Part shown: in pieces, positions 32-14,495 of the stretch
Position numbering within the stretch: position 1 is the first letter of the stretch
Layout of the letters: the number at the start of each line of letters is the position of its first letter
IMG/VR virus record: IMGVR_UViG_3300037454_000603
Location: 1 to 15,645 of that record
DNA: 15,645 nt
Reading direction: 5' to 3' (one strand)
From: a virus
Lineage: Duplodnaviria; Heunggongvirae; Uroviricota; Caudoviricetes
Notes under the pieces: model-generated
Told to the model about the DNA's origin: nothing
Databases searched by the model: none
What the model saw: the letters and a program-made list of their open reading frames with translations, nothing else
Translations under genes and position numbers: made by a program

Positions 32-52
32 TGAAATACCTCTCCAATTTCA
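32..52. repeat. boundary palindrome J0
   Basis: TGAAAT-acctctcca-ATTTCA with TTAATAA/TTGTTAA extended arms. Confidence 0.9.
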
Positions 53-125
53 TTGTTAATATTTAGGAAAAGTATGAACCCCTTATTAAAATTGAAATGG
101 GGGGGGCGGATTTAAAAAAAAGAAT

Positions 126-144
126 AGGGGTCATTAAGACCCCT
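126..144 (-). terminator. intrinsic terminator
   Basis: AGGGGTC/GACCCCT stem followed by a T-run on the minus strand. Confidence 0.8.
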
Positions 145-150
145 TTTAAA

Positions 151-387
151 TTACCATTCCCAAGGACAAGATTGTGTAATTTCTCTAAAACCGCATGTAT
201 TTTCTTTATTTTCTCTATAAAATGGACAGTCCTTACAATCATCAGTATTATTACAATATTCTCTTACTTGACTAACCATATTAAAGAATTCATCTACTTT
301 TGATTTAAAGAAAAATTGTTCATGCTTTACACATTCTGTTTTATTCTCAAACTGTTCTCCATCAAAACTTTCATAAATTATTTTCAT
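151..387 (-). CDS. Cys-rich hypothetical protein (paralog of 948..1190)
   Basis: 78 aa ORF; SD GGGGTG upstream; Y-x-S-x-DG-x-x-F N-terminus and C-x6-C-x2-CPFY...C...CPWEW C-terminus; terminator directly after the stop. Confidence 0.85.
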   Translation of the reverse strand: MKIIYESFDGEQFENKTECVKHEQFFFKSKVDEFFNMVSQVREYCNNTDDCKDCPFYRENKENTCGFREITQSCPWEW

Positions 388-400
388 TTTATTTCACCCC

Positions 401-625
401 TTACTTATCAACAGTATATCCTTCGATGTAGCAAACACCCTCTATGCTACCAATTGCTTCAAATTCTTCCAGAATTTCCTCAAGGTCTTCTTTATCATAG
501 TTATCACCGTGAAGTCTGAGCCAAGGTTCTACGCAGATTTCTCTTGCTTTTTCCTGAGCTTTTTCAAAAGTTGAATAAAGTCCTCTTACAATATTGTCCT
601 CGTCCTGTAAAAAATAAATCATCAT
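401..625 (-). CDS. small acidic hypothetical protein
   Basis: 74 aa; SD GAAAGGA; promoter at 679-707; GLYSTFEKA motif typical of small phage proteins. Confidence 0.85.
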   Translation of the reverse strand: MMIYFLQDEDNIVRGLYSTFEKAQEKAREICVEPWLRLHGDNYDKEDLEEILEEFEAIGSIEGVCYIEGYTVDK

Positions 626-678
626 AGTATCAAATCCTTTCTAGTTTTTAAGAGTTTTCTTTCTCTTATCTTGATTAT

Positions 679-707
679 ATTATAGCATATAATTGTTTGT
701 TTGTCAA
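679..707 (-). promoter_or_regulatory. sigmaA-type promoter
   Basis: TTGACA-17-TATAAT with TG extension. Confidence 0.85.
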
Positions 708-782
708 TAGGTTTTTGAATTTTATTTTGTAAACTATTTATGAATAGAATAAAAGATTTAACTATGAACTATATGTTATTTT

Positions 783-845
783 TGAAATACATTGTGCCGC
801 GACACCAATAACAAAATATGAACAGTGAAATGTGTTTGCATTTCA
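783..845 (+). repeat. composite boundary site J1
   Basis: TGAAAT 783, GCCGCGAC 796, palindrome 826-845 (N8). Confidence 0.85.
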
Positions 846-914
846 ATCTTAACAATTCCTTAATATTAAAATATCCAACCCCTATTTCAAAATTAATCTT
901 TTATTAAAAAAGAA

Positions 915-941
915 TAGGGGTTCAATTTAATTGAACCCCTA
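915..941 (-). terminator. intrinsic terminator
   Basis: 12-bp stem TAGGGGTTCAAT/ATTGAACCCCTA. Confidence 0.85.
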
Positions 942-947
942 ATTAAT

Positions 948-1190
948 TTACCAATCACATGGCATTTTATCATCGTCTATGTATTCACTATATCCAAGGC
1001 GGCATTTATCTCCATTATAAAACGGGCAGTTTTCACAATAATGTTCCTGACAAATTTCTTTAATATATGGAATAAATTCATTTATCTTTGTAATTATATC
1101 AAGCTTTTTCTCGTGTTCTAAACATTCATCAGCACTATTAAAAATTCTCCCATCACTTGCTTTGTATTTTTTAACCATAATCTCTTCCAT
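948..1190 (-). CDS. Cys-rich hypothetical protein (paralog of 151..387)
   Basis: ATG at 1190 chosen from SD AAGAGG (track start 1199 is TTG); YKASDGRIF...C-x4-C-x2-CPFY...C...PCDW. Confidence 0.85.
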   Translation of the reverse strand: MEEIMVKKYKASDGRIFNSADECLEHEKKLDIITKINEFIPYIKEICQEHYCENCPFYNGDKCRLGYSEYIDDDKMPCDW

Positions 1191-1300
1191 TAAAATCAAC
1201 CTCTTTTCTTAATCTTAGCAAAAGTTTTTCAGAATAGGGGTCACTATTGCAACCCCTTATCTTATCTTACCCAACATCTTAGGGTATAATCTTGAATGGT

Positions 1301-1390
1301 CTATCGTCCTCTTGTAAACCACTCAACAAGTCGAATTAGCCAATGCCTATCACCATACTTGCAACGAATTTTAAATAACAGATTTCTCAT
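1301..1390 (-). CDS. 29-aa small ORF MRNLLFKIRCKYGDRHWLIRLVEWFTRGR
   Basis: Not in the track; SD AAAGGCGG and promoter 1423-1451 immediately upstream; ends at TAG. Confidence 0.6.
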   Translation of the reverse strand: MRNLLFKIRCKYGDRHWLIRLVEWFTRGR

Positions 1391-1422
1391 TTATTCACCG
1401 CCTTTGCTCTTTTGTTATACTA

Positions 1423-1451
1423 AGTATAACATATAAATAGAAATTTGTCAA
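1423..1451 (-). promoter_or_regulatory. sigmaA-type promoter
   Basis: TTGACA-17-TATACT with TG extension. Confidence 0.85.
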
Positions 1452-1526
1452 GAGGTTTTTAAAAATTTCTTTGTAAACTATTTATTAAGTAGTTAGAAGA
1501 TTTAATTATTACAGAATTATTAAGAC

Positions 1527-1591
1527 TGAAATAGTTGGTCTGGCGGCGCGAGGTAAATAAATATGAACAATGAAATACCGTCCCTATTTCA
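1527..1591 (+). repeat. composite boundary site J2
   Basis: TGAAAT 1527, GGCGGCGC 1542, palindrome 1571-1591. Confidence 0.9.
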
Positions 1592-1655
1592 ACATTAACA
1601 ACTGCTTAATAATTAAAACAACTAACAAATTAATAAAAACTTGACATTTTAACCC

Positions 1656-2223: not shown

Positions 2224-2244
2224 TGAAATAGAGTTGGCATTTCA
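2224..2244. repeat. boundary palindrome J3
   Basis: TGAAAT-agagttggc-ATTTCA. Confidence 0.9.
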
Positions 2245-2395: not shown

Positions 2396-2830
2396 TTGGC
2401 TAAAATTATTAACTTCGATATGGACGGCACTATTGCAAATTTGTATGGGGTTGACAATTGGTTAGATTATTTAATCAATAGCAATACTTATCCTTATGAA
2501 GTTGCAAAACCAATGGTTAATATGTCTTATCTTGCAAGACTTCTTAACCGATTAATTAACAAGGGATATTTAATTAATATAATCTCTTGGACTTCAAAAA
2601 ACGGCACTCCTGAATACAATGAAGCGGTTAAACAAGCAAAAATTAAGTGGTTAAAAACTCACTTAAAATCAGTTAATTTTTCAAACATTTACGTGATTCC
2701 ATACGGCACACCAAAACACACAATTTCAAGTGGTATTCTTTTTGATGATGAAGAACCAAACCGCATAAAATGGGGGAACGGTGCTTACACTGAAAAAGAA
2801 ATTTTCAAAGTTTTAAAGGCGATTGCATAA
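2396..2830 (+). CDS. HAD-superfamily phosphatase, 5'(3')-deoxyribonucleotidase-like
   Basis: Motif I FDMDGT, motif II ISWTS, K in motif III region, motif IV ILFDD; TTG start after SD GAAAGGCGG. Confidence 0.8.
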   Translation: MAKIINFDMDGTIANLYGVDNWLDYLINSNTYPYEVAKPMVNMSYLARLLNRLINKGYLINIISWTSKNGTPEYNEAVKQAKIKWLKTHLKSVNFSNIYVIPYGTPKHTISSGILFDDEEPNRIKWGNGAYTEKEIFKVLKAIA

Positions 2831-2839
2831 ATCGCCTTT
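2815..2839 (+). terminator. intrinsic terminator
   Basis: AAAGGCGATT/AATCGCCTTT plus T-tail. Confidence 0.85.
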
Positions 2840-2875
2840 TGTTTTTTCTTTTAACTATTAATTAAATGTGAACAC

Positions 2876-2942
2876 TGAAATAGTTCGGTGCCGCGGCACG
2901 ATGTAAACAGAATGTGAATATTGAAATACCCATCCTATTTCA
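2876..2942 (+). repeat. composite boundary site J4 (convergent junction)
   Basis: TGAAAT 2876, GCCGCGGC 2890, palindrome 2922-2942. Confidence 0.9.
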
Positions 2943-2957
2943 ATGTTAATAAATAAG

Positions 2958-2985
2958 AAAAGGTTCAGATAAAACTGAACCTTTT
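2958..2985 (-). terminator. intrinsic terminator
   Basis: AAAAGGTTCAG/CTGAACCTTTT. Confidence 0.85.
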
Positions 2986-2990
2986 ATACT

Positions 2991-3392
2991 TTAAATCAAA
3001 ACTCTATAACTATTCTTACTATCTCTAAACTGTTCAATATTATCATCGGCAATATTATAAACAGCATATAATCCTCTACAAGCTTCCCCAATGAACATAT
3101 ATTCCGTATCATCATAAAAGAATACGTCGCCGTTTTTCATTTCTGAAAGTTTTTTCATTTCGATGATAGTCGGTACTTCAAAGTCATAGCACCTTGTATA
3201 AGCGATTGCCACTCCTATTGTAAAATCAAAATCATCATCGGGGTGACATCTTGCTACACCAACTTTGCCTGTTGTTGTATCATAACAAATAGTTGCATTT
3301 GAGTTAGGAATAGTTCCTATATAGCAAGAACGATTTCTCTTTGCATGGTCATATGCTCTTTTTGCCCACTTATAAAATTCTTCTCTTGTCAT
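2991..3392 (-). CDS. hypothetical phage protein with GKVGxARxHPDD motif (paralog of 5453..5857)
   Basis: 133 aa; SD GGAGGG; the G-x-A-x-C-H-P-D-D...G-x-A-I-A motif is recalled from small phage families (T7 gp1.7 / N4 gp49-like), unverified. Confidence 0.85.
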   Translation of the reverse strand: MTREEFYKWAKRAYDHAKRNRSCYIGTIPNSNATICYDTTTGKVGVARCHPDDDFDFTIGVAIAYTRCYDFEVPTIIEMKKLSEMKNGDVFFYDDTEYMFIGEACRGLYAVYNIADDNIEQFRDSKNSYRVLI

Positions 3393-3445
3393 AATATCAA
3401 GTCCCTCCTAGTTTTTAAGAGTTTTCTTTCTCTTATCTTGGTATA

Positions 3446-3474
3446 ATTATAACACAAAACCCGCTTTTAGTCAA
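3446..3474 (-). promoter_or_regulatory. sigmaA-type promoter
   Basis: TTGACT-17-TATAAT. Confidence 0.85.
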
Positions 3475-3525
3475 TGAATTAATTGTTAATTTTTCTTTAA
3501 AATATTGTGAACACTTTGTTACTGT

Positions 3526-3546
3526 TGAAATCGTAGCACTATTTCA
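3526..3546. repeat. boundary palindrome J5
   Basis: TGAAAT-cgtagcact-ATTTCA. Confidence 0.9.
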
Positions 3547-3600
3547 ATGTTCACATAACGTTAATAATTAATTCTTTTAATCAATTCATAAAAAGTTTAC

Positions 3601-3629
3601 TTGACAAATTCAGAAATATATGTTATACT
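3601..3629 (+). promoter_or_regulatory. sigmaA-type promoter
   Basis: AAAGTTTAC-TTGACA-17-TATACT. Confidence 0.85.
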
Positions 3630-3685
3630 ATATACAGAAGATAAGGAAAGACCTTATCAAATAAAAAGAAAGAGAGTGATTTTAA

Positions 3686-3889
3686 ATGATTACAATTGAA
3701 GTAGTTGACTGGTATGACGGTGACAGAGAGGTTATAGGCATAGCACATTCTTTTAGTGAAGCCGCGGCAATTCGTAACGCAAGATATGAAGATACTGATG
3801 ATGAAGCTGATGTTAATTGCTATATGGGCGGTGAATGTGTAGACCACATTGTATCACTTTATAGTCCTTGTGATGATGAAGATTATTAA
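3686..3889 (+). CDS. small highly acidic protein
   Basis: 67 aa, 18 D/E versus 3 R and no K; own promoter and terminator. Confidence 0.85.
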   Translation: MITIEVVDWYDGDREVIGIAHSFSEAAAIRNARYEDTDDEADVNCYMGGECVDHIVSLYSPCDDEDY

Positions 3890-3913
3890 AAGAGAGGGCG
3901 TAAGCCTTCTCTT
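3890..3913 (+). terminator. intrinsic terminator
   Basis: AAGAGAGGGC/GCCTTCTCTT plus T-tail. Confidence 0.8.
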
Positions 3914-3933
3914 TTTTAACATTCTTTAAACGA

Positions 3934-3954
3934 TGAAATCTGGACGACATTTCA
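3934..3954. repeat. boundary palindrome J6 (convergent junction)
   Basis: TGAAAT-ctggacgac-ATTTCA between two terminators. Confidence 0.9.
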
Positions 3955-3970
3955 TTATTCATAATTAAGA

Positions 3971-3997
3971 AAAGAGTTGAGATAAACTCAACTCTTT
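3971..3997 (-). terminator. intrinsic terminator
   Basis: AAAGAGTTGAG/CTCAACTCTTT. Confidence 0.85.
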
Positions 3998-4374
3998 TTA
4001 ACGATATTTATTCCCTTTTCAACTAAGTACTGAATTGCAAGTTCATTTTTTGAATAGTTCAAGATTTGATTAATAGAAACATTTTCAGCTTTTGTATAAT
4101 AAGTCTTTAATAAAATTCGTGTAGTATCATTCTTCCACTGTTTAAGCGGTTTAATGTATCTATTCCACAAATTAAAATGAATAACTTTTCCTTTTTTCTT
4201 ATTTTGAGAATAAAAGCCATAACACCCGCTAAATTTTTCTACATTTGCCCAAGTAACTACTTCCGTTTCCTCTACACTACTTTCTTTTTCATCAATAATT
4301 ACTAACCATGAATCAGACCGTACTTCTTCATCATTAAAATAAGTATCCTTGTGTTTGTAATAGCAACCCAACAT
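3988..4374 (-). CDS. hypothetical protein
   Basis: 128 aa; SD GAAAGGA; promoter 4412-4440; terminator overlaps the TGA stop. Confidence 0.85.
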   Translation of the reverse strand: MLGCYYKHKDTYFNDEEVRSDSWLVIIDEKESSVEETEVVTWANVEKFSGCYGFYSQNKKKGKVIHFNLWNRYIKPLKQWKNDTTRILLKTYYTKAENVSINQILNYSKNELAIQYLVEKGINIVKKS

Positions 4375-4411
4375 TTAAATCAAGTCCTTTCTTAATCTTT
4401 ATTGTACTTAC

Positions 4412-4440
4412 ATTATACCACATTAATTCCATTTTGTCAA
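4412..4440 (-). promoter_or_regulatory. sigmaA-type promoter
   Basis: TTGACA-17-TATAAT. Confidence 0.85.
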
Positions 4441-4479
4441 CCCCTTTCTCAAACTTAATTGTAAACATTTTATTACGAC

Positions 4480-4545
4480 TGAAATACCGTCTATATTTCA
4501 TCGTTCACAATTTAAGTTAATCTCGCGCCGCCGTACTATATTTCA
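4480..4545 (-). repeat. composite boundary site J7 (reversed)
   Basis: Palindrome 4480-4500, GCGCCGCC 4525, ATTTCA 4540. Confidence 0.9.
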
Positions 4546-4609
4546 GTATTCACACTACGTTAATAATTAAATCACTTAACCAATTAACAAAAACTTAAAT
4601 AAATAACTA

Positions 4610-4638
4610 TTGACTTTTAATATAATTTATGGTATAAT
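4610..4638 (+). promoter_or_regulatory. sigmaA-type promoter (upstream of tandem pair)
   Basis: TTGACT-17-TATAAT. Confidence 0.8.
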
Positions 4639-4728
4639 ATATTCAGAAAAGAAAAAGAGAACAGAAAAAATCAGAAACCAAACTGAGAGATTTGGTTAAG
4701 TAAAAAAACAAATTAAAAAAAAGTTTAC

Positions 4729-4757
4729 TTGACAAAATCGAAAAAATATGGTATAAT
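4729..4757 (+). promoter_or_regulatory. sigmaA-type promoter (downstream of tandem pair)
   Basis: AAAGTTTAC-TTGACA-17-TATAAT. Confidence 0.85.
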
Positions 4758-4855
4758 AAATGTAGAAAAGAGAGAGAGAGAGAAAACAAAACAAAATCCA
4801 TAACAACCAAACTGAAAGTCAGCCGTAGACGTTAAAACGGAGAAAGTAGGTAAAT

Positions 4856-5275
4856 ATGGCAAACGTAACTGGCACTAACACTGAGAACAAGGCAATGACC
4901 ACAAGAGAGTTCTACACCGCTGTCATCAATGCAAATGTGGCTGAGGACGTAACCAAGTTCGCAGAGAACGCACTCGCAAAGCTCGATGAAAAGAACGCAA
5001 AGAGAAAGGCTGAGGGTAGCAAGACCGCTAAGGAAAACGTAGCTATCAAGGCAAATCTTGTTGCCGCTATGGAAAAGGGCGTTACTTACACTGCCGCAGA
5101 ACTGTTCGCACTGGGCGTTGAGGGTGTAACTTCCACACAGAAAGCAAGCGCACTGATTCGTCAGGTAGTTAAGACGGGTGAAGCGGTTGAGAGTGAAATC
5201 AAGATAAAGGGCAAGGGTAAGGTCAAGGGTTACACTCTTGTTACTTCTGAGGACGACGAAACCGTTGAGGAATAA
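4856..5275 (+). CDS. putative DNA-binding protein: coiled-coil N-terminus plus winged helix-turn-helix (paralog of 6938..7345)
   Basis: TYTAAEL...STQKASALIRQVVKTG...KGKVKGYTL matches a wHTH helix-turn-helix plus beta wing pattern; codon choice (TTC, AAC, AAG) differs from neighbours. Confidence 0.8.
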   Translation: MANVTGTNTENKAMTTREFYTAVINANVAEDVTKFAENALAKLDEKNAKRKAEGSKTAKENVAIKANLVAAMEKGVTYTAAELFALGVEGVTSTQKASALIRQVVKTGEAVESEIKIKGKGKVKGYTLVTSEDDETVEE

Positions 5276-5280
5276 AAAGA

Positions 5281-5298
5281 GAGGGGCATTTGCCCCTT
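5281..5298 (+). terminator. intrinsic terminator
   Basis: GAGGGGC/GCCCCTT plus long T-tail. Confidence 0.85.
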
Positions 5299-5352
5299 TT
5301 CTTTTTTCTTTTAATTTGTTAAAATTTTTAACTATTAACCAATTATGAACAC

Positions 5353-5418
5353 TGAAATAGTTGGTGCCGCGGCGCAATGTAAATAGAATATGAACGTTGA
5401 AATGCTAATTCAATTTCA
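5353..5418 (+). repeat. composite boundary site J8 (convergent junction)
   Basis: TGAAAT 5353, GCCGCGGC 5366, palindrome 5398-5418. Confidence 0.9.
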
Positions 5419-5440
5419 TTATTAACATTTTTATAATAAA

Positions 5441-5468
5441 GAAAATGTCCGATTATTCGGACATTTTC
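5441..5468 (-). terminator. intrinsic terminator
   Basis: 12-bp stem GAAAATGTCCGA/TCGGACATTTTC. Confidence 0.8.
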
Positions 5469-5857
5469 ACATCAATCATTTCAAATAGTATCGGACTATC
5501 ATTCCATGTGAGATATTCAGAATGTGATATCAAATCTACAACTTGATTATTACAGTTTTTGCCAATATAACGGTATTTCTCACCACGCCAGAGAAAAACT
5601 TCTCCATTTTTCATCTCACAAAGTCTTTTATATACCGTGAGTTTAGGAAACTCTTTACCTGTACAACGGCAGTAAGCAAGAGCAATACCGTAATCTCTTA
5701 TTTTTTCATCATCGGGGTGAAGTCTTGCCATGCCCACTTTGCCGTTTCTCTCGTTTACTACAAAAGTATAAACATCTCTTGTAATAACTCTATACTTGTC
5801 GCGGTTGATACTGTCCGCAGTCTTGTGTACCCAGTCAAGCAGTTCATTTTTGTTCAT
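5453..5857 (-). CDS. hypothetical phage protein with GKVGxARxHPDD motif (paralog of 2991..3392)
   Basis: 134 aa; shares GKVG.AR.HPDD, IA.AY.RC and EMKNG.VF with 2991..3392. Confidence 0.85.
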   Translation of the reverse strand: MNKNELLDWVHKTADSINRDKYRVITRDVYTFVVNERNGKVGMARLHPDDEKIRDYGIALAYCRCTGKEFPKLTVYKRLCEMKNGEVFLWRGEKYRYIGKNCNNQVVDLISHSEYLTWNDSPILFEMIDVKMSE

Positions 5858-5909
5858 AATTTTAATTCCTTTCTGGTTTTTAGAGTTTTCCTTCTCTTAT
5901 CTTGATTAT

Positions 5910-5938
5910 ATTATAACACATATTCATCGAATTGTCAA
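5910..5938 (-). promoter_or_regulatory. sigmaA-type promoter
   Basis: TTGACA-17-TATAAT. Confidence 0.85.
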
Positions 5939-5984
5939 TAGGTTTTTTTCAATTTTATTTGTAAACTATTTATGAATATGTTGC

Positions 5985-6037
5985 GCCGCGGCACTTATGG
6001 AATAATTATGAACAGTGAAATACTGTCCCCTATTTCT
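5985..6037 (+). repeat. degenerate composite site J9
   Basis: GCCGCGGC 5985; TGAAAT-N10-ATTTCT 6016-6037. Confidence 0.75.
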
Positions 6038-6746: not shown

Positions 6747-6767
6747 TGAAATCCCTTTCCTATTTCA
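6747..6767. repeat. boundary palindrome J10
   Basis: TGAAAT-ccctttcct-ATTTCA. Confidence 0.9.
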
Positions 6768-6937: not shown

Positions 6938-7345
6938 ATGACACAGAGAGAATTTTTTGAAGTAATCGCAAATGGCACTGGTAAGGTATCTTACAAGAAC
7001 GGTGAAAACACTGTTTTTAAGACCATTGATATCAATGACCCCGATATCAAGGAGTACGCAAAGTCGGCTATCGAGAAGCTTAATGCTAAGAACGAAAAGC
7101 GTAAGACAGAAGGAAGCAAGACCGCAAAGGAAAATGAGCCTATCAAGGCAAATATCATTAAGCTTTTTGAGGATAACCCTCAGACAGTTTATACCGCAAA
7201 GAACATTGCTGATAAGATAGGTATTTCCACACAGAAGTCTTCTGCACTTCTTCGTCAGATAGTATCAACTGGCAGAGTTGATGTTTTTGACACCAAGAAC
7301 GAAGAGAAGAAGAAGGTTAAGGGATATCAGTTTAAGGGTGAATAA
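6938..7345 (+). CDS. putative winged-helix DNA-binding protein (paralog of 4856..5275)
   Basis: Shares MT.REF, K..KRK.EGSKTAKEN..IKAN, YTA, STQK.SAL.RQ.V..G and KVKGY with 4856..5275. Confidence 0.8.
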   Translation: MTQREFFEVIANGTGKVSYKNGENTVFKTIDINDPDIKEYAKSAIEKLNAKNEKRKTEGSKTAKENEPIKANIIKLFEDNPQTVYTAKNIADKIGISTQKSSALLRQIVSTGRVDVFDTKNEEKKKVKGYQFKGE

Positions 7346-7396: not shown

Positions 7397-7417
7397 TGAA
7401 ATTGGATTGGCATTTCA
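7397..7417. repeat. boundary palindrome J11
   Basis: TGAAAT-tggattggc-ATTTCA. Confidence 0.9.
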
Positions 7418-7608: not shown

Positions 7609-8073
7609 ATGGCAAGGATAAAAAACAGCAAGAAAGAACTTAATTTGACAGTAGATAGTAAGCAGTTCCGAGAAATTAACAGACAGAAATGTATAAGAAA
7701 GCGTGACATTCGCTCTCTCACAAAAATTGCAGACGGTTTCACTAATGCCGCAAATGATGATGAAATACTCCGTCTAGCTCGAGAGATAGTTTATCAGGGA
7801 CAGAGAAAGGAAAAAGCAATTATTAATGAAATCAATCTTACTAATATTAAAGAAAAACTTCTTGAAAATGTTAGTCAGGGAGATATGTTTACACTTGATA
7901 GTGTATATAAAATTCTTTGGGAAACCAAAACTTCCCCAAAGGGAGCACATCTTGGTCATGCACTTCTCGCCGCACTTGATGACCTTGTAAAAGACAATGT
8001 ACTTGAAAGAAAAACAATGGTGCATGATGTACCCAGTGGCACTAGCCATGTAACCGTTTATACGGTGCTTTAA
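7609..8073 (+). CDS. basic hypothetical protein with possible C-terminal winged helix
   Basis: ATG 7609 after SD GAAAGGA; C-terminal FTLDSVYKIL...LLAALDDLVKDNVLER...VYTVL resembles a wHTH (inference). Confidence 0.8.
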   Translation: MARIKNSKKELNLTVDSKQFREINRQKCIRKRDIRSLTKIADGFTNAANDDEILRLAREIVYQGQRKEKAIINEINLTNIKEKLLENVSQGDMFTLDSVYKILWETKTSPKGAHLGHALLAALDDLVKDNVLERKTMVHDVPSGTSHVTVYTVL

Positions 8074-8076
8074 TAA

Positions 8077-8124: not shown

Positions 8125-8145
8125 TGAAATACCAACCCCATTTCT
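8125..8145. repeat. boundary palindrome J12 (one mismatch)
   Basis: TGAAAT-accaacccc-ATTTCT. Confidence 0.8.
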
Positions 8146-8484: not shown

Positions 8485-8496
8485 GGGGATTTAAAA

Positions 8497-8673
8497 ATGA
8501 ATAGATATTATTTAAGTTTTGTATGCTTAGAAACTGATTATGAATATGGCTTTACCGCGACTTGTGAAAATACAACAGAAGCAATATCAATTGTTAGAGA
8601 TAAGCTTTTTGAAATGTTAACCGCAGTACTCCCAAAAGTTACATTAGTTCTAAAAGATTTAATAATTTGTTAA
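8497..8673 (+). CDS. 58-aa hypothetical protein MNRYYLSFVCLETDYEYGF...
   Basis: Not in the track; SD AGGGGG; terminator at the stop. Confidence 0.75.
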   Translation: MNRYYLSFVCLETDYEYGFTATCENTTEAISIVRDKLFEMLTAVLPKVTLVLKDLIIC

Positions 8674-8696
8674 GAGTTGAGATTTTCTCAACTCTT
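8672..8696 (+). terminator. intrinsic terminator
   Basis: AAGAGTTGAG/CTCAACTCTT. Confidence 0.85.
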
Positions 8697-8713
8697 TTCT
8701 TATTTATGAACGA

Positions 8714-8819
8714 TGAAATCCCTTCCCTATTTCATTATTCACAATTTTTCAATACCTTGTGCCGCCTTACTAAATTTCAGCGTTCACAATTCAGACAAAT
8801 ATGAATATGTTGCCGCGGC
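8714..8819 (-). repeat. composite boundary site J13 (reversed) plus extra GC box
   Basis: Palindrome 8714-8734, GCCGCC 8761, ATTTCA 8774, second GCCGCGGC 8812-8819. Confidence 0.9.
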
Positions 8820-8854
8820 GCAACAAATTAACAAAGAGTTTACAATTATATCCC

Positions 8855-8883
8855 TTGACAAATTGATGAATATAGTGTATAAT
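8855..8883 (+). promoter_or_regulatory. sigmaA-type promoter
   Basis: TTGACA-17-TATAAT. Confidence 0.85.
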
Positions 8884-8962
8884 ATATATGTAAGGTACAG
8901 AAAGACAATGCAATACGGCATAAATCTAAACTGTATCAAAAACTGAAAGGAATGATATAAAA

Positions 8963-9703
8963 ATGAGTAGTAAATTTATGGTTCTTGACGTTGAGGGTTA
9001 TTCGGCTTGCCGTCCATATGATATCGGCTTTAAAGTTACCGATAAAAGCGGAAAGACTTTTGAAGAACATTCCGTAGCAATAATGCCTGCTACATTTGAG
9101 AATATGTGCTATAAAGCAGACAAAGCACTTGTTAAAGGTTTGTCGGGCGCACACGAGATGGCACACCGCAACATTGAAGAAATATGCAACGATACACAGG
9201 ACAAATATATTAAATGCTTTGACATAGATAAGTTCTATTTTGCATTTGTTGCTATTATTCAAAAGTACAATATTAAAAGGATATGGGCGTACAATTGCAG
9301 TTTTGACAAAGCCGCATTAAATAGGCTTTTCGGTGATGAAAAGTTCGGCGTTATAAATTCAATGGTTGAATTTTGTGATATAATTCCTGCAATACTTCAC
9401 ACAAAATTGCTGAATAAAGAATACATCGACTTTTGTAAGAAAAATAAGTTTATAACTGAAAAAGGTAACATTCAGACAAAAGCAGAAGTCGTTTACAAAT
9501 TCTTAACAGGAAATTTAAATTTTGAAGAAGAACATACTGGACTTGCCGACGTTCAGATTGAAACAGAAATTTTGCTTACTGCCATGAGAGAAAGTAAGAA
9601 TGTAAAGCGCAAGCCTTGCCAAGCATGGAAAATTATTAGAGAATTTTGCGTAGTTAATGACATTGAACTTCCAACAGTAAGTTTTGAAGAAATGATGAAT
9701 TAG
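8963..9703 (+). CDS. DEDDh-family 3'-5' exonuclease
   Basis: ExoI VLDVEG, ExoII AYNCSFD, ExoIII EHTGLADV. Confidence 0.9.
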   Translation: MSSKFMVLDVEGYSACRPYDIGFKVTDKSGKTFEEHSVAIMPATFENMCYKADKALVKGLSGAHEMAHRNIEEICNDTQDKYIKCFDIDKFYFAFVAIIQKYNIKRIWAYNCSFDKAALNRLFGDEKFGVINSMVEFCDIIPAILHTKLLNKEYIDFCKKNKFITEKGNIQTKAEVVYKFLTGNLNFEEEHTGLADVQIETEILLTAMRESKNVKRKPCQAWKIIREFCVVNDIELPTVSFEEMMN

Positions 9704-9710
9704 TTAAAAG

Positions 9711-9733
9711 ACCGCCCGCAATTCACGGGCGGT
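9711..9733 (+). terminator. intrinsic terminator
   Basis: ACCGCCCG/CGGGCGGT. Confidence 0.8.
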
Positions 9734-9758
9734 TCATTTTTGAACGTAGTGTGAATAC

Positions 9759-9824
9759 TGAAATAGTTGGTGCCACGGCACAATATTACCCAAATGTTAA
9801 CAACGAAATGCCATCCATATTTCA
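9759..9824 (+). repeat. composite boundary site J14 (convergent junction)
   Basis: TGAAAT 9759, GCCACGGC 9772, CGAAAT-N9-ATTTCA 9804-9824. Confidence 0.85.
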
Positions 9825-9840
9825 TCGTTCACAAATAAGA

Positions 9841-9865
9841 AAAGGTTCAGAATATCTGAACCTTT
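9841..9865 (-). terminator. intrinsic terminator
   Basis: AAAGGTTCAGA/TCTGAACCTTT. Confidence 0.85.
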
Positions 9866-9868
9866 CTT

Positions 9869-10069
9869 TTACCTATTATACCAGACCTTTTTATTATTGT
9901 GGTCTATTATAATATTGCCCCTGTTTGCTTTTGTATCTCCTAAGCAAACTCTCATAGCTTCCTCAATATATTGAGATTCTCTATTCCACGAGATACAAGG
10001 CGGGTTAACGATAACATGATAGCCTTTGAATTTTTCTTTAAAAACTTCACCAATTGTTTTGTTTGACAT
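9869..10069 (-). CDS. hypothetical protein
   Basis: 66 aa; SD GAAAGG; second gene of a two-gene unit. Confidence 0.8.
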   Translation of the reverse strand: MSNKTIGEVFKEKFKGYHVIVNPPCISWNRESQYIEEAMRVCLGDTKANRGNIIIDHNNKKVWYNR

Positions 10070-10084
10070 AACATCACTGCCTTT

Positions 10085-10285
10085 CTAACTTAAATCTGCA
10101 TAAAAGTTCTTGTATATTACGTAGGGACGTTCTTCTAACTGTAACATAATCAATTCAACTTCACAATCTTTTAAGTTGGGATAATATAACTTTAAATGCT
10201 CTTCTACTGCCTGAACTGCTTTTACCCATGAAGAGTAAGATTTAATTATAGTAACTCCATCGTATTGAATACATATGCTTTGCAT
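10085..10285 (-). CDS. hypothetical protein
   Basis: 66 aa; SD GAAAGGA within the shared leader module. Confidence 0.8.
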   Translation of the reverse strand: MQSICIQYDGVTIIKSYSSWVKAVQAVEEHLKLYYPNLKDCEVELIMLQLEERPYVIYKNFYADLS

Positions 10286-10338
10286 AATATCAAATCCTTT
10301 CTAGTTTTTAAGAGTTTTCTTTCTCTTGTCTTGACTAT

Positions 10339-10367
10339 ATTATAACATATAAATGTTGATTTGTCAA
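10339..10367 (-). promoter_or_regulatory. sigmaA-type promoter
   Basis: TTGACA-17-TATAAT. Confidence 0.85.
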
Positions 10368-10397
10368 GAGGTTTAATTGTAAATTATTTATATACGT

Positions 10398-10418
10398 TGA
10401 AATATTATCTCTATTTCA
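10398..10418. repeat. boundary palindrome J15
   Basis: TGAAAT-attatctct-ATTTCA. Confidence 0.9.
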
Positions 10419-10442
10419 TTATTCATATTTTATTTAAAAAGA

Positions 10443-10463
10443 AAAGAGGGCATAGCCCTCTTT
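10443..10463 (-). terminator. intrinsic terminator
   Basis: AAAGAGGGC/GCCCTCTTT. Confidence 0.85.
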
Positions 10464-10467
10464 ATTT

Positions 10468-10917
10468 TTATTCTATTTTAATATTTTTAATCTGTCCCGC
10501 AAAAAGTTTTTCACAAGAAAGTTCCTGAATTATATCTGTTATTTCATGAAAATCATTTGAATAGAGATTAGGTTCAATTGTTATTCCGTTTACTAACTGA
10601 ATTTTGATTTTAAACTTTTGAGAACTATTACTTGCGGTTTTCTTTTCTTTATTATGATATGCGTTAAATTCATAAAAAAGTGCGGCAGGAAGACAATTTT
10701 CGTTAATGGGTCTATATAAGCAATCATAAGCATCATATTGATAATAACAACTTTCCGCTTCTTTCAGAAGTGCAGTTTCATGTTCTGTACCCTCTTCCGT
10801 AATCCACTTAATTGCGTCTTCATATCCCTTTTCATTGAATATAACTAAATATATTGCGTTTTCAGCATATTCCACAGGATTATAAGAATCATTGTATGCC
10901 TTAAAATTTTCAAACAT
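10468..10917 (-). CDS. two-domain hypothetical protein (C-terminal domain similar to 11210..11617)
   Basis: 149 aa; shared leader module; own promoter and terminator. Confidence 0.85.
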   Translation of the reverse strand: MFENFKAYNDSYNPVEYAENAIYLVIFNEKGYEDAIKWITEEGTEHETALLKEAESCYYQYDAYDCLYRPINENCLPAALFYEFNAYHNKEKKTASNSSQKFKIKIQLVNGITIEPNLYSNDFHEITDIIQELSCEKLFAGQIKNIKIE

Positions 10918-10972
10918 AACATCAAGTCCTTTCTAGTTTTTTTAAGAGTTTTCTTTCTCTTATCTTGATTAT

Positions 10973-11001
10973 ATTATAGCATATTTAGGGGAATAAGTCA
11001 A
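10973..11001 (-). promoter_or_regulatory. sigmaA-type promoter
   Basis: TTGACT-17-TATAAT. Confidence 0.85.
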
Positions 11002-11041
11002 TTAATTATTTGTATTTATTTTATTGCTAAATTGTGAACTT

Positions 11042-11093
11042 GCGCCAGCACAATGTTAACCAAATATGAATGATGAAATACCACTCTATTTCG
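11042..11093 (+). repeat. degenerate composite site J16
   Basis: GCGCCAGCACAATGT 11042; TGAAAT-N8-ATTTCG 11074-11093. Confidence 0.8.
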
Positions 11094-11147
11094 TCGTTTA
11101 CATAGTATTAATATTTAAAATTCTTAACTAATTAATAAAATATTTAC

Positions 11148-11176
11148 TTGACAAAATGAGATTTATATGTTATACT
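11148..11176 (+). promoter_or_regulatory. sigmaA-type promoter
   Basis: TTGACA-17-TATACT. Confidence 0.85.
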
Positions 11177-11209
11177 ATATATAGAAAATAAAGAAAGGTG
11201 GTCATAAAT

Positions 11210-11617
11210 ATGGCTTATAAAATGTTTGATAAAAATTTTGAGGAAATTTCTATTGATGGTGAATGGCGTTATCTTTATGTTACAGACTGGGAAGATTTTG
11301 TAGAAGAATTCGGCGATACATGGATTCTGGAAGGCATTTTTGAAGATGGTGTTTATGAGTATGATGATTACTATGAGAAGTGGTCAGAACTTGCAGAAAA
11401 CTCTTTTGCTTATAAAGAAATTTTAAAAAGAGTTTCAAATAGTGTTGAAAATACTAAGAAAAGATGGGGTATTGTTGTAACACTTGATACTGGCGAAAAG
11501 ATTAAAACTAATATAGTTCCCGTTTCAATAGAAGATGTACAGGAAGCAATTGGTGTACTGGTTAAACCTAGTATTCTTGGAATGAGAATAAAAAGTATAG
11601 AAATAGTTACGGAGTAA
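11210..11617 (+). CDS. two-domain protein with acidic aromatic N-terminus
   Basis: ATG 11210 after SD GAAAGGTGG. Confidence 0.85.
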   Translation: MAYKMFDKNFEEISIDGEWRYLYVTDWEDFVEEFGDTWILEGIFEDGVYEYDDYYEKWSELAENSFAYKEILKRVSNSVENTKKRWGIVVTLDTGEKIKTNIVPVSIEDVQEAIGVLVKPSILGMRIKSIEIVTE

Positions 11618-11626
11618 TCCGTAACT
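11605..11626 (+). terminator. intrinsic terminator
   Basis: AGTTACGGA/TCCGTAACT plus T-tail. Confidence 0.85.
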
Positions 11627-11648
11627 TTTTTGAACTAAATATGAACAC

Positions 11649-11714
11649 TGAAATACTTTCCTATTTCATCATTAACATTTTGTTAAATAACTTGCGCCGC
11701 CTTACCATATTTCA
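11649..11714 (-). repeat. composite boundary site J17 (reversed)
   Basis: Palindrome 11649-11668 (N8), GCGCCGCC 11694, ATTTCA 11709. Confidence 0.9.
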
Positions 11715-11768
11715 GACTTAACATTTCATTAATAATTAAATGCTTTGACCAATTCACAAAAAGTTTAC

Positions 11769-11797
11769 TTGACAAATTCCGATTTTTAGTGTATAAT
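11769..11797 (+). promoter_or_regulatory. sigmaA-type promoter
   Basis: AAAGTTTAC-TTGACA-17-TATAAT. Confidence 0.85.
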
Positions 11798-11829
11798 ATA
11801 GTTAAAGAAAACGAAAGGAAGTGCTTTTA

Positions 11830-12192
11830 ATGGCAAGATATGATGATTTAAACGAATTTAAGAACGAACGTGAGAAAATGAACGCAATCCGTGAGAGAGT
11901 ATCAAAAGTAATCTATGAGAGAATCAAACCAGAGTTCGGTGAAGAATTTGTGCGTTACATTCCTAAAGATATTGGAATAACACCAAATGCTTCTAAGGTT
12001 GCCAAGTATACCGTAGTTGCGGACGTTGGTGATGTAAAGGACAATGGCGGGTGTGATGTCGGAGTATGTGTAGAAATCACAGTCAAGGTCAAAAAGTGGA
12101 ATACTGTTGAAACCAAATCGGACAAAATAACATACGGTATAACACTTGATGATTATGACATTGAGTTAGAAGAGGAAAAAGAGGGGGAATAA
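11830..12192 (+). CDS. hypothetical protein
   Basis: ATG 11830 after SD GAAAGGA; weak similarity to 14564..14944. Confidence 0.85.
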   Translation: MARYDDLNEFKNEREKMNAIRERVSKVIYERIKPEFGEEFVRYIPKDIGITPNASKVAKYTVVADVGDVKDNGGCDVGVCVEITVKVKKWNTVETKSDKITYGITLDDYDIELEEEKEGE

Positions 12193-12201
12193 CCCCTCTT
12201 T
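12178..12201 (+). terminator. intrinsic terminator
   Basis: AAAGAGGGG/CCCCTCTTT plus T-tail. Confidence 0.85.
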
Positions 12202-12222
12202 TTTTGAACGAAATATGAACGT

Positions 12223-12290
12223 TGAAATGGAGATGGTGCCGCGGCGCAATGTTAACTAGATATTAATAGTGAAATATCAATCATATTTCA
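12223..12290 (+). repeat. composite boundary site J18
   Basis: TGAAAT 12223, GCCGCGGC 12238, palindrome 12270-12290. Confidence 0.9.
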
Positions 12291-12344
12291 TCGTTCATAT
12301 TTTGCCAATAATTAAAAGTTTAAACTTATTAATAAAAAGTTTAC

Positions 12345-12373
12345 TTGACAAATTCTAGTTTTTAGTGTATAAT
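12345..12373 (+). promoter_or_regulatory. sigmaA-type promoter (near-copy of 11769)
   Basis: AAAGTTTAC-TTGACA-17-TATAAT. Confidence 0.85.
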
Positions 12374-12401
12374 ATAGTTAAAGAAAAGGAGTTGAGTATC
12401 A

Positions 12402-12569
12402 ATGAAATTTAAAGAATACGTCGAAGGAGTAAAGAAAATGTTAGAAGAACACCCTGATTGGGGTGAATTAGAAATGACACAAGTAGAAAGGTGGGAAGGA
12501 GAGGACGTTTGTTTGCCTTGGCATGAAGAACCTTTTATGAGTTTTGAAGATGGAAGAATATATCTTTAA
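12402..12569 (+). CDS. 55-aa acidic protein MKFKEYVEGVKKMLEEHPDWGELEM...
   Basis: Not in the track; SD AAGGAG; directly after promoter 12345-12373. Confidence 0.85.
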   Translation: MKFKEYVEGVKKMLEEHPDWGELEMTQVERWEGEDVCLPWHEEPFMSFEDGRIYL

Positions 12570-12592
12570 TAATTGAAAAGGAGAGATTTAAA

Positions 12593-12778
12593 ATGGCAAC
12601 TTACACAGTAAATTTCGCACAGTGGTTTCCCTATGAGGTAGAAGCAGATAGTCCCGAAGAAGCAATCAATATAGCGCACGAAGATTTTGTTCAGAATATG
12701 TATAGAGCAGTAGTAACCACAGATTATGATGAGGTAATAGTTGAAGATGAAGACGGCAAAGAAGTAGTACACTATTGA
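12593..12778 (+). CDS. small acidic protein with EVEADSPEEA motif
   Basis: 61 aa, 15 D/E versus 2 K/R; SD AAGGAG. Confidence 0.85.
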   Translation: MATYTVNFAQWFPYEVEADSPEEAINIAHEDFVQNMYRAVVTTDYDEVIVEDEDGKEVVHY

Positions 12779-12789
12779 GTGTACTACTT
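12762..12789 (+). terminator. intrinsic terminator
   Basis: AAGTAGTACACT/AGTGTACTACTT plus T-tail. Confidence 0.85.
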
Positions 12790-12812
12790 TTTTATTAACA
12801 GAATATGTCCGA

Positions 12813-12833
12813 TGAAATACCAACCCAATTTCA
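12813..12833. repeat. boundary palindrome J19
   Basis: TGAAAT-accaaccca-ATTTCA. Confidence 0.9.
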
Positions 12834-12916
12834 TCCTTCACACCCTCTTAATAATTAAAAGTCTTAACCAATTAATAAAATTTTAACTTTAAATCCCTTA
12901 CCAGTTAACATTTATC

Positions 12917-12925
12917 TGTTATAAT
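12917..12925 (+). promoter_or_regulatory. extended -10 promoter, degenerate -35
   Basis: TGTTATAAT; only TTACCA-like sequence near the -35 position. Confidence 0.6.
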
Positions 12926-12970
12926 AATAATGTACTTAAAGAGTACAATAAATATTAAGGAGTTGTTACA

Positions 12971-13627
12971 ATGATAAAGAAAAATTATTATTTGATGTTG
13001 GACACGGAAACGGCAGGAAGTCTTAATAAACCATTAGTTTATGATATTGGCTTGGCAATAATCGACCGTAAAGGAAAAATTTACAAGTCTTATTCTCTTG
13101 TAATTTCAGAAATCTTTTACGGAGAAAAAGACCTCATGAAGTCAGCCTATTATGCCAAAAAAATTCCAATGTATTTAGATCATATTAAACAAGGTAAAAA
13201 AACCGTTACAAGTTTTTGGCAAATGAAACGACTTATTGAAAAGCTTTTCACGCTTTACAACATTAAAGCGGTGGTTGCCCATAATGCAAGTTTTGACATT
13301 AAAGCACTTAACAATACAATTAGCTTTTTATCTAATGGAAGTGAAAAATTTTTCTTTGATAGTAATGTCAATATTTGGTGTACTCTTGCTATGGCAAGGA
13401 GTACAATTTGCAAACAGCCAACTTATATAAAGTGGTGTAAAGAACACGGTTATTATTCGCGGAGAGGGGCGAGGGCAACGGCAGAAATTTTGTATAGGTT
13501 TATTAGTGGCAACAATAGTTTCATTGAATACCATACGGGATTGCAGGATGTTTTAATTGAAAAAGAAATTTTTGTTAGGTGTATGAGACAGCATAAGAAA
13601 ATGAACAAAAACCCAGTTAATTGGTAG
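12971..13627 (+). CDS. DEDDh-family 3'-5' exonuclease (paralog of 8963..9703)
   Basis: ExoI MLDTETAG, ExoII AHNASFD, ExoIII YHTGLQDV. Confidence 0.9.
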   Translation: MIKKNYYLMLDTETAGSLNKPLVYDIGLAIIDRKGKIYKSYSLVISEIFYGEKDLMKSAYYAKKIPMYLDHIKQGKKTVTSFWQMKRLIEKLFTLYNIKAVVAHNASFDIKALNNTISFLSNGSEKFFFDSNVNIWCTLAMARSTICKQPTYIKWCKEHGYYSRRGARATAEILYRFISGNNSFIEYHTGLQDVLIEKEIFVRCMRQHKKMNKNPVNW

Positions 13628-13631
13628 AATT

Positions 13632-13655
13632 TAAGTGGCGAGAAATTGCCACTTA
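13632..13655 (+). terminator. intrinsic terminator
   Basis: TAAGTGGC/GCCACTTA plus T-tail. Confidence 0.8.
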
Positions 13656-13674
13656 TTTCTTTTTTTATTAATAT

Positions 13675-13740
13675 TGAAATAGTTGGTGTCGCGGCACAAT
13701 GTTAACCAATTGTAAATGTAGAAATAGTTGCACTATTTCA
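13675..13740 (+). repeat. composite boundary site J20
   Basis: TGAAAT 13675, GTCGCGGC 13688, AGAAAT-N9-ATTTCA 13720-13740. Confidence 0.85.
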
Positions 13741-13794
13741 TCATTCACTGAATATTAATAATTAAAAGTCTTAACTAATTAAAGAAAGTTTAAC

Positions 13795-13823
13795 TTGACA
13801 TTTTAGAATAGTTGTGATATAAT
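13795..13823 (+). promoter_or_regulatory. sigmaA-type promoter
   Basis: TTGACA-17-TATAAT. Confidence 0.85.
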
Positions 13824-13849
13824 GAAGTTAAAGAAAAGGGGTGAGTTAA

Positions 13850-14080
13850 ATGATGTTAGTTTTAACAAAAGGTCTTGTGTGGTTTTATGTTTTAACTTTC
13901 TGCTGTCCTATCTTTTTAGCCAAAGCATACAAAAAAATTTTTAAACCTAAAGGAAAACAATGGTTTAAAATTCTTGATATTGTTGGTTATTTAGTGGTAT
14001 GGTCATCAAGAATATTCTTTTCATTTTGTGGAATTTTCCTATTATATATAATATATGTAGGTTGTAAAAATATTTTTTAA
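13850..14080 (+). CDS. small membrane protein, two hydrophobic segments
   Basis: SD AAGGGGTG; two TM-like stretches separated by a Lys-rich loop. Confidence 0.75.
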   Translation: MMLVLTKGLVWFYVLTFCCPIFLAKAYKKIFKPKGKQWFKILDIVGYLVVWSSRIFFSFCGIFLLYIIYVGCKNIF

Positions 14081-14092
14081 GGAGTGTTGAAA

Positions 14093-14431
14093 ATGAGTAC
14101 GAGAGATTACTGGATTGAATGTATTTATGATGTGATAATTGATATGGGATATAGTTTTTACGATTACTACACCGAGGAAGAGGGTTTGAACTGCACTGAC
14201 GTTTTGCCGTCAGAAGACTTGCTGTCAGACTTAGAACACGACATAAACGATATTATTAAAAATCTTGATTTAGATGTTTATTTGGACGGGCGGGAACTTT
14301 TATGTGAAATTTTAGATGAATTTCAGGACTATGCTATGTGCTTTGAAGTAATTAAAGATGAAGACTATGCCACAAAACTTGTAATAAGTTATTTACTGCC
14401 CGAAGTTGCATGGAAATTCACAAATTCTTAA
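14093..14431 (+). CDS. highly acidic protein, DNA-mimic candidate
   Basis: ATG 14093 after SD AAGGAG; 112 aa with 28 D/E versus 6 K/R. Confidence 0.85.
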   Translation: MSTRDYWIECIYDVIIDMGYSFYDYYTEEEGLNCTDVLPSEDLLSDLEHDINDIIKNLDLDVYLDGRELLCEILDEFQDYAMCFEVIKDEDYATKLVISYLLPEVAWKFTNS

Positions 14432-14436
14432 CAATT

Positions 14437-14456
14437 AAGACCCCTTTTGGGGTCTT
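14437..14456 (+). terminator. intrinsic terminator
   Basis: AAGACCCC/GGGGTCTT. Confidence 0.8.
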
Positions 14457-14473
14457 TAATTTTTTATGAACAA

Positions 14474-14495
14474 TGAAATACCCACTCCCATTTCT
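14474..14495. repeat. degenerate boundary palindrome J21 (convergent junction)
   Basis: TGAAAT-N10-ATTTCT. Confidence 0.75.

Follow-up and report, generated by a model that had tools for sequence, protein, structure and literature searches.

The stretch of DNA analyzed here (hereafter the window) comprises the first 15,645 nt of the 178,943-nt virus record IMGVR_UViG_3300037454_000603, which comes from a large gut or rumen phage and the two ends of which overlap by ~173 nt. The window carries an array of small transcription units with one copy of a palindrome, TGAAAT-N8-10-ATTTCA, at each unit boundary. A sequence comparison of five such arrays indicates that the palindrome is a seam at which whole units are exchanged between related phages. 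We lean to the view that this is a cassette array resembling those framed by the promoter early stem-loop (PeSL) modules of T4-type phages, and that the seam would, in addition, dock a putative dimeric regulator at the unit boundaries.

A first-pass annotation of the window had listed 22 copies of the site (J0 to J21, Table 1), and every one of them was recovered as an exact or a one-mismatch match. Exact copies numbered 17 in the window, whereas 200 shuffles predicted 0.05, and the remaining five coordinates (6016, 8125, 9804, 11074/13720, and 14474) hold copies with a mismatch in one arm. The annotation had also stated that no copy lies inside an open reading frame (ORF), which held for the copies with conserved flanks and failed for one exact copy starting at 14305. 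That copy lacks the conserved flanks, scores below 12 bits with the 39-nt weight matrix, and has a similar stretch in the orthologous gene of a relative; because the flanks are absent and the relative's orthologue carries a similar stretch, we regard it as a coding coincidence. Elsewhere in the genome, exact copies were present only at 70985 (unflanked) and at 178802, the latter being the site at position 32 repeated in the overlap of the contig ends. Degenerate copies with one mismatch at 176121 and 178000 show that the array wraps across the contig join, from ~176 kb to ~14.5 kb. The weight matrix, with 39 positions and 42.8 bits from an alignment of 76 sites, gave no match at or above its threshold of 12 bits in the 179-kb genome outside the region from 176.1 kb to 13.7 kb. 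The motif is thus confined to the array and not spread evenly through the genome with its structural operons, and the same scan revealed no autoregulatory copy of the site outside the array. Arrays of this kind hold 22–26 copies each. No DNA similarity to catalogued phages was found, the site had no match in Rfam, a scan of IMG/VR, in which the record of the window itself is masked, for the flanked motif returned only single chance matches, and a protein-pattern scan of IMG/VR with a 246-aa protein of the array returned no match.

Alignment of the sites yielded a palindrome of 39 nt, TRTKAAYRnTGAAAT-N9-ATTTCAnYRTTMAYA. The extension of the arms noticed earlier was therefore real, and its shape was corrected to this full palindrome. 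The spacer had been described as not conserved, which proved incorrect, as it is C-rich and polar, following RCCnYCCnT on one strand; in four arrays it runs forward at 61 sites and in reverse at 12, independently of the strands of the neighboring genes. Spacers differ from site to site, yet they travel with their junction, such that ACCTCTCCA, ATCAATCAT, and AGTTGCACT recur at orthologous junctions across genomes. The inner arms are invariant over the 76 sites, and four mirror pairs of the outer arms are variable. Complementarity at these pairs (observed/expected under independence: 32/36, 30/33, 30/38, and 35/40) showed no excess, and the inner-arm mismatches (CGAAAT, AGAAAT, ATTTCT, and ATTTCG) occur without a compensating change in the other arm, so that the two halves evolve independently under a constraint on sequence. 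Such a pattern is the mark of a duplex DNA site that a symmetric protein would read, and not of a hairpin in RNA or in a single DNA strand, which argues against readings of the attC, REP (repetitive extragenic palindromic), or RNA-processing kind. A hairpin model was rejected on the lack of covariation between the arms. About half of the sites also carry a GC box, GYGCCGCGGCRC, which lies 38–42 nt from the site center in ~30 junctions of the five arrays; in most cases a third half-site, TGAACAnTGAAAT, comes after it, and the module may stand on either side of the palindrome. The anatomy of the site makes it likely that a sequence-specific dimer binds there.

The units between the sites had been described as self-contained, and this description was borne out. 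A consensus scan of the window identified 23 promoters with 11–12 matches out of 12 to TTGACA-17-TATAAT, in most of which the −10 box is extended by TG. Terminator-like sites numbered 38, where 7 were expected, and both kinds of signal are arranged unit by unit; the expression signals are Gram-positive-style, the boundary modules are 70–85% identical to one another, and each interval between two sites contains genes of a single strand. Terminators directed toward a site no more than 150 nt away numbered 68, and in 39 of them the stem ends 25–44 nt from the site center; the T-tract therefore abuts the outer arm. Promoter positions were analyzed for 87 strong promoters with an upstream site. The distances from the site center to the −35 box fell into classes of 64–66, 75, 86–87, 119, and 128 nt, with a periodogram peak at 11 nt (R 0.61) that was reached by none of 3000 nulls. 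The 11-nt phasing was significant in four of the five arrays and was kept when only distinct distance values were used (p about 0.0007). A fixed operator–promoter distance was ruled out, since the distances span 40 to 132 nt.

Relatives were found through homologues of the 246-aa protein together with a motif scan of metagenome contigs, and the same palindrome occurred in four further arrays, L087 (177.7-kb contig), L176+L142 (one 22.9-kb contig), L158, and L183. The five arrays share a colinear backbone along which whole units have been gained, lost, tandem-duplicated, moved, and flipped, so that the order of units differs between relatives rather than being identical. The unit at 12270–12813 of the window is missing from L087. 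In three relatives, the unit at 11074–11649 sits between the gene of the 246-aa protein and the unit at 9804–10398; J14 is a breakpoint of this translocation, and J16 moves together with the unit. In L183, a whole AAA-ATPase unit is inserted at J7, and families F0, F7, and F19 were found in both orientations. Of the 238 ends of homology blocks in the four closest arrays, 23.5% lay 10–30 nt beyond the site center, at the far edge of the palindrome, against 2.8% under a uniform null and 5.5% under a non-coding-only null, a 4–8-fold enrichment. Junction alignments placed the cross-overs in the palindrome or within ~25 nt of it, in one case 10–15 nt to its left, in others in the gap that separates the GC box from the palindrome and apparently also inside the palindrome, and in a further case in the right half or at some point between −22 and +65 nt relative to the center. 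Taken together, the unit maps of the five arrays, the enrichment of block ends, and the junction alignments uphold the earlier proposal that the units are exchangeable expression cassettes.

A second part of that proposal, a dedicated recombinase, was not supported. The 179-kb genome yielded no match to Phage_integrase (PF00589), which matched all control genomes, to Resolvase (serine recombinase), or to Y1_Tnp (PF01797); partner sites have differing spacers, and the cross-over points vary. The variable cross-over points at the seam and the differing partner spacers therefore argue for homologous recombination and not for a lox- or attC-type enzyme, and the palindrome provides homology in both orientations, which fits the flipped units. 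At one site of L176 (11722–11742), the right half of the palindrome is kept and the left arm reads TGAGAT with foreign flanks; the cross-over with the neighboring array maps inside the right half and looks like the scar of a within-site exchange. The variable cassettes of the relatives include an AAA+ ATPase (L183, 8528–9580), a MazE/AbrB-type small protein, and a PcfJ-like protein (L087, 4330–4620 and 7994–9103), and these illustrate the kinds of cargo that are swapped in.

More distant relatives, whose arrays are built alike, carry other palindromes at the corresponding position. The L097 array (47% protein identity) has 22 copies of a perfect palindrome, TTGGTCCCTTAAGGGACCAA, between 542 and 13226, each ~12 nt past a terminator; clusters of GGTCCCTT half-sites were also seen in this array at 2141–2245. 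ACCGTT-N2-AACGGT occurs once per gap in L185 (2–1836), and roughly one palindrome per intergenic gap was found in L187 (CCGTTATAACGG, at 317 and 1004) and in L184 (GTTAAA-N3-TTTAAC beside a GC box, 2659–13227). L092 and L095 have looser arrays of TGTGAAT/TTCACA words with GC boxes. The swap of one palindrome for another while the architectural position is conserved has its simplest explanation in a DNA-binding factor that co-evolves with the site.

The mechanism to which we lean is as follows. The array consists of ~25 autonomous units transcribed by the host polymerase, each with a sigma-70-type promoter, a Shine-Dalgarno sequence, one to three small genes, and an intrinsic terminator. At each boundary, a single 39-bp duplex palindrome would most likely dock a sequence-specific dimer or a pair of dimers of a putative protein that is probably phage-encoded. 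The placement of the palindrome, behind a terminator and, in most of the related arrays, on a fixed helix face upstream of a promoter, suggests a boundary or operator role, and the docked protein could stop read-through and switch the flanking early promoters. The palindrome serves as a homologous-recombination seam as well, because ~40–60 nt of near-identical sequence stand at every boundary and read the same in both orientations; as the comparison of the five arrays shows, whole units are added, deleted, duplicated, moved, and flipped there by ordinary homologous recombination, with no special recombinase needed. A more far-reaching version, which we consider possible although doubtful, is that one fast-evolving, lineage-specific boundary protein runs the whole early set of lytic phages in this gut and rumen group. 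Under that tentative extension, the GC-box partner and helical phasing would allow ~25 units to be insulated and switched at once, the divergence in specificity would resemble stoperator heteroimmunity, and the array would offer a recombinase-free exchange platform for either orientation.

The search for the docking protein weighs against a regulator of this kind, as it named no binder among the winged-helix proteins of the array, of which there are at least three (F2a, F2b, and F6; Table 1). F2 had a weak MarR-type PHROG match, and its AlphaFold model (predicted local distance difference test, pLDDT, 84) gave PadR/MarR-like fold matches. F6 (pLDDT 81) had weak winged-helix fold matches including PadR, MarR, TFIIE, and RTP; for both proteins, the fold search returned only weak matches of the generic winged-helix type (E between 0.008 and 0.1). 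All five motif-bearing arrays encode F6, and six arrays that lack the motif do not. An exhaustive profile search with F6 yielded only 36 cluster representatives. The contigs of its distant homologues carry other palindromes, the closest out-group member stands beside a different palindrome in spite of a similar putative recognition helix, and P0250, whose helix is like that of L087, lies beside CCGTTATAACGG; F6 is weakened thereby as the specific binder. A predicted complex of the F6 homodimer scored 0.11 against a mark of 0.42 and counts neither way. F2, a large family, was rejected as the specific binder, since its recognition helix is nearly invariant across lineages without the motif and the degree to which TRTKAAYA, the outer-arm word, is enriched does not follow the presence of F2. 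The long 5' leaders of F2a, F2b, and F6 (4760–4855, 6860–6937, and 7525–7608) share ACAGTAAAGG...CAGAAAGAGGT before the start codon and may be a cis-regulatory leader; similar leaders occur in distant relatives, at 6470–6545 in L095 and in repeat families D18 (L092) and D13 (L089).

Further observations count against the same reading. In the array of the window itself, the 11-nt phasing did not reach significance (R 0.41, p 0.4), and the phasing statistics are inflated because the promoters are partly orthologous or paralogous through shared module ancestry. Five of the 22 window sites are flanked by convergent terminators and have no promoter close by, and the site is therefore better regarded as a boundary element first, linked to a promoter where one follows. 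On the side of exchange, block ends can be resolved only to ~25 nt on either side of the palindrome because the copies are alike, and some rearrangements fall inside units, as in the co-transcribed pair at 9869–10285, which is split in relatives. The early timing, finally, is read from promoter type and stop-codon use.

Several other explanations of the palindrome were considered. It could be a PeSL-like recombination seam only, with no protein bound, its copies kept alike by concerted evolution and its shape permitting insertion in either orientation. Cassettes are indeed shuffled at the sites, PeSLs work in this way (PMC2839356, PMC4122927), and the searches for a recombinase and for a binder both came up empty. 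Concerted evolution would, however, homogenize the spacers, whereas the arms are invariant and the spacers differ and are inherited with their junction; the distance of the GC box, the 11-nt promoter phasing, and the other palindromes of relatives are left without explanation as well, and we consider this reading unlikely. A host transcription factor or nucleoid protein that times, tunes, or titrates the array, with palindromes differing by host, would account for the classical dimer-operator form of the site, for early units that are read by the host polymerase before any phage protein exists, and for the failure to name a binder among the phage proteins. We know of no host operator that matches the site. 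Close relatives within one phage group switch between unrelated palindromes, for which a fast-evolving phage factor is the easier explanation (cf. stoperators, PMC6550527), and a host factor thus appears less likely still.

The reading preferred in the first-pass annotation, lox-, attC-, or res-type recombination sites served by an unrecognized recombinase, draws on the inverted arms around a spacer, on the presence of one site per cassette boundary, and on the three-part composite with the GC box, which recalls multi-subsite recombination sites. The empty searches for tyrosine and serine recombinases and Y1 transposases in 179 kb, the differing spacers of partner sites, a cross-over position that changes between events, and a conservation in sequence rather than structure (the opposite of attC), in units that have their own promoters and stand in either orientation, make it very unlikely. 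We regard as highly improbable a topological or replication boundary, be it a preferred site for the phage gyrase or topoisomerase, as REPs and bacterial interspersed mosaic elements (BIMEs) are in E. coli, or a polar fork barrier of the RTP-Ter type that shields the heavily transcribed array. The phage has GyrB- and GyrA-like proteins, the spacer polarity is mostly uniform and independent of the direction of transcription, a repeat-rich non-coding stretch that is a possible origin adjoins the array, and RTP of B. subtilis is among the weak fold matches of F6. All of these points are circumstantial, though; promoter phasing is not predicted, gyrase sites are not short conserved palindromes, and the RTP match is weak (E 0.02, TM 0.3–0.4) and generic for winged helices. 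The least probable of the explanations, to which we give hardly any weight, is an RNA or single-stranded DNA hairpin that acts as a back-up terminator, as a processing site, or as a REP-like element moved by an enzyme of the RAYT type (REP-associated tyrosine transposase). The 39-nt palindrome could form a stem of ~13 bp and lies directly past terminators, but the arms show neither excess complementarity nor compensation of mismatches, Rfam and Y1 transposase matches are lacking, and the site would seldom be transcribed because it is downstream of terminators.

Table 1. Palindrome sites, related matches, and winged-helix genes in the window
Feature	Coordinates	Strand	Remarks
J0	32..52	+	Exact; spacer ACCTCTCCA; repeated at 178802
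J1	826..845		Exact; 8-nt spacer; GC module at left, 783–812
J2	1571..1591	+	Exact; between divergent promoters; GC module 1527–1556
J3	2224..2244	-	Exact; spacer polarity reversed
J4	2922..2942	+	Exact; between convergent terminators, without nearby promoter; GC module 2867–2908
J5	3526..3546		Exact; between divergent promoters
J6	3934..3954		Exact; between convergent terminators
J7	4480..4500	+	Exact; between divergent promoters; GC module at right, 4516–4555
J8	5398..5418	+	Exact; between convergent terminators; GC module 5344–5384
J9	6016..6037	+	10-nt spacer; right arm ATTTCT; GC box 5971–5996
J10	6747..6767	+	Exact
J11	7397..7417	-	Exact; spacer polarity reversed
J12	8125..8145	+	Right arm ATTTCT
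J13	8714..8734	+	Exact; GC modules at right, 8757–8789 and 8801–8830
J14	9804..9824	+	Left arm CGAAAT; between convergent terminators; GC module 9750–9790
J15	10398..10418	+	Exact
J16	11074..11093	+	8-nt spacer; right arm ATTTCG; GC box 11033–11060
J17	11649..11668	+	Exact; 8-nt spacer; GC module at right, 11690–11724
J18	12270..12290	+	Exact; GC module 12214–12256; left end of unit missing from L087
J19	12813..12833	+	Exact; right end of unit missing from L087
J20	13720..13740		Left arm AGAAAT; GC module 13675–13707
J21	14474..14495	+	10-nt spacer; right arm ATTTCT
Unflanked exact match	14305..14325		Within ORF; outside the boundary-site family
Degenerate half-site ATTTCAttGTTCAaa	15112..15135		Past last promoter; right edge of array; no matrix match
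Gene F2a	4856..5275	+	139 aa; winged-helix; long 5' leader
Gene F2b	6938..7345	+	135 aa; F2a paralogue
Gene F6	7609..8073	+	154 aa; winged-helix; weak binder candidate

The genome in which the array resides was also examined. Reading TAG as a sense codon raised the coverage by long ORFs from 0.35 to 0.69 over the whole genome, and the longest frame comprises 2626 codons with 71 in-frame TAGs (e.g., 140971–148851 on the minus strand); on this evidence from the reading frames, the phage is TAG-recoded, with TAG as glutamine. The genes of the array mostly terminate with TAA, and genes with in-frame TAG lie on both flanks. Because of these TAA stops, the flanking in-frame-TAG genes, and the host-type promoters, the array is likely an early region, and we infer that its genes are early genes. 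Besides the gyrase-like proteins, the genome encodes PhoH, DnaB, and an intein-bearing RNA ligase, and an HU-like (TF1-type) protein is absent from its 179 kb. To the right of the array, a non-coding stretch of 1.4 kb extends from 15000–15645 of the window to ~16480 of the genome. It contains the direct repeat catcacctaatYgcggcggcttt twice as well as tandem repeats of 17–29 nt, and may be an origin or control region; ~1 kb beyond it (genome 17561–17983) lies a gene that matches the weak HTH_36 gene of L087. Within the array, 8963–9703 and 12971–13627 encode two paralogues, 246 and 218 aa long, that share 28% identity. Both are part of the conserved backbone, and their metagenomic homologues run into the hundreds; the 218-aa protein has a weak match to an Rv2179c-like 3'-5' exoribonuclease domain. 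A unit encoding an NT5C-type 5'(3')-deoxyribonucleotidase (2396–2830; Pfam E 2e-6) is conserved in every relative examined.

In large phage genomes, no part is understood less or changes faster than the early host-takeover genes, and the array displays, in its sequence, how such genes come as plug-in units that relatives exchange, in a phage group far from T4. With its strong matrix, the 39-bp site provides a handle for fishing out the putative regulator of the whole early program and a marker with which early-gene arrays can be found and delimited in uncultivated phage genomes. Exclusion between competing relatives could have its basis in the binder, provided that this protein is encoded by the phage and specific to the lineage.

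Among known systems, lox- and FRT-type sites have identical partner spacers and a fixed cross-over point, whereas the present sites have differing spacers and cross-overs that fall anywhere between a point 25 nt left of the palindrome and the interior of its right half. Integron attC sites likewise are recombination-prone inverted repeats at each boundary of small accessory genes. They are conserved as a folded single strand, and integron cassettes are promoterless and stand in one orientation; the sites described here are conserved in sequence without covariation, no integrase was found in the PF00589 search, and the units have their own promoters and terminators, both orientations, and variable cross-overs. 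The REP/BIME elements of enterobacteria resemble the site in being imperfect palindromes of ~35–40 bp between units, past terminators or between convergent genes, and composite with neighboring boxes. In contrast to the array-confined site, which shows no covariation in a genome without a PF01797 match, REPs are dispersed, structure-constrained hairpins linked to RAYTs.

The stoperators of Cluster A mycobacteriophages number 20–30 copies per genome, most of them intergenic and outside promoters, with a consensus that differs by lineage (PMC6550527), and the arrays share with them the many non-promoter copies of one site with a lineage-specific consensus. Stoperators are 13-bp asymmetric sites, distributed genome-wide and oriented with transcription, to which the immunity repressor of temperate phages binds, and they have been proposed to block elongating polymerase (PMC6550527). 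The present site is palindromic and array-confined, and its polarity ignores the direction of transcription; as stoperators are asymmetric, genome-wide, and transcription-oriented, the array does not belong to their family. The sole described parallel to the exchange of plug-in early units is the PeSL of T4. In the hyperplastic regions of T4-type phages, repeated modules of a terminator and a strong sigma-70-type promoter frame small non-essential genes and are exchanged by homologous recombination in the repeated module, with no dedicated recombinase (Arbiol et al. 2010, PMC2839356; Comeau et al. 2014, PMC4122927). In cassettes of the PeSL type, exchange between adjacent modules also gives rise to mini-circles. 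The array differs from PeSLs in its conserved core, a separate 39-bp non-hairpin palindrome that often has a GC box at a fixed distance, where PeSLs have the promoter/stem-loop itself as core, in its units, which lie on both strands, are flipped between relatives, and form one contiguous array of ~25, and in its phage, an unrelated, TAG-recoded one that is not T4-type and uses Gram-positive-style signals. It has in common with them the repeated intergenic modules of terminator and sigma-70-type promoter, unit by unit, and the insertions, deletions, and replacements between relatives that end within these modules.

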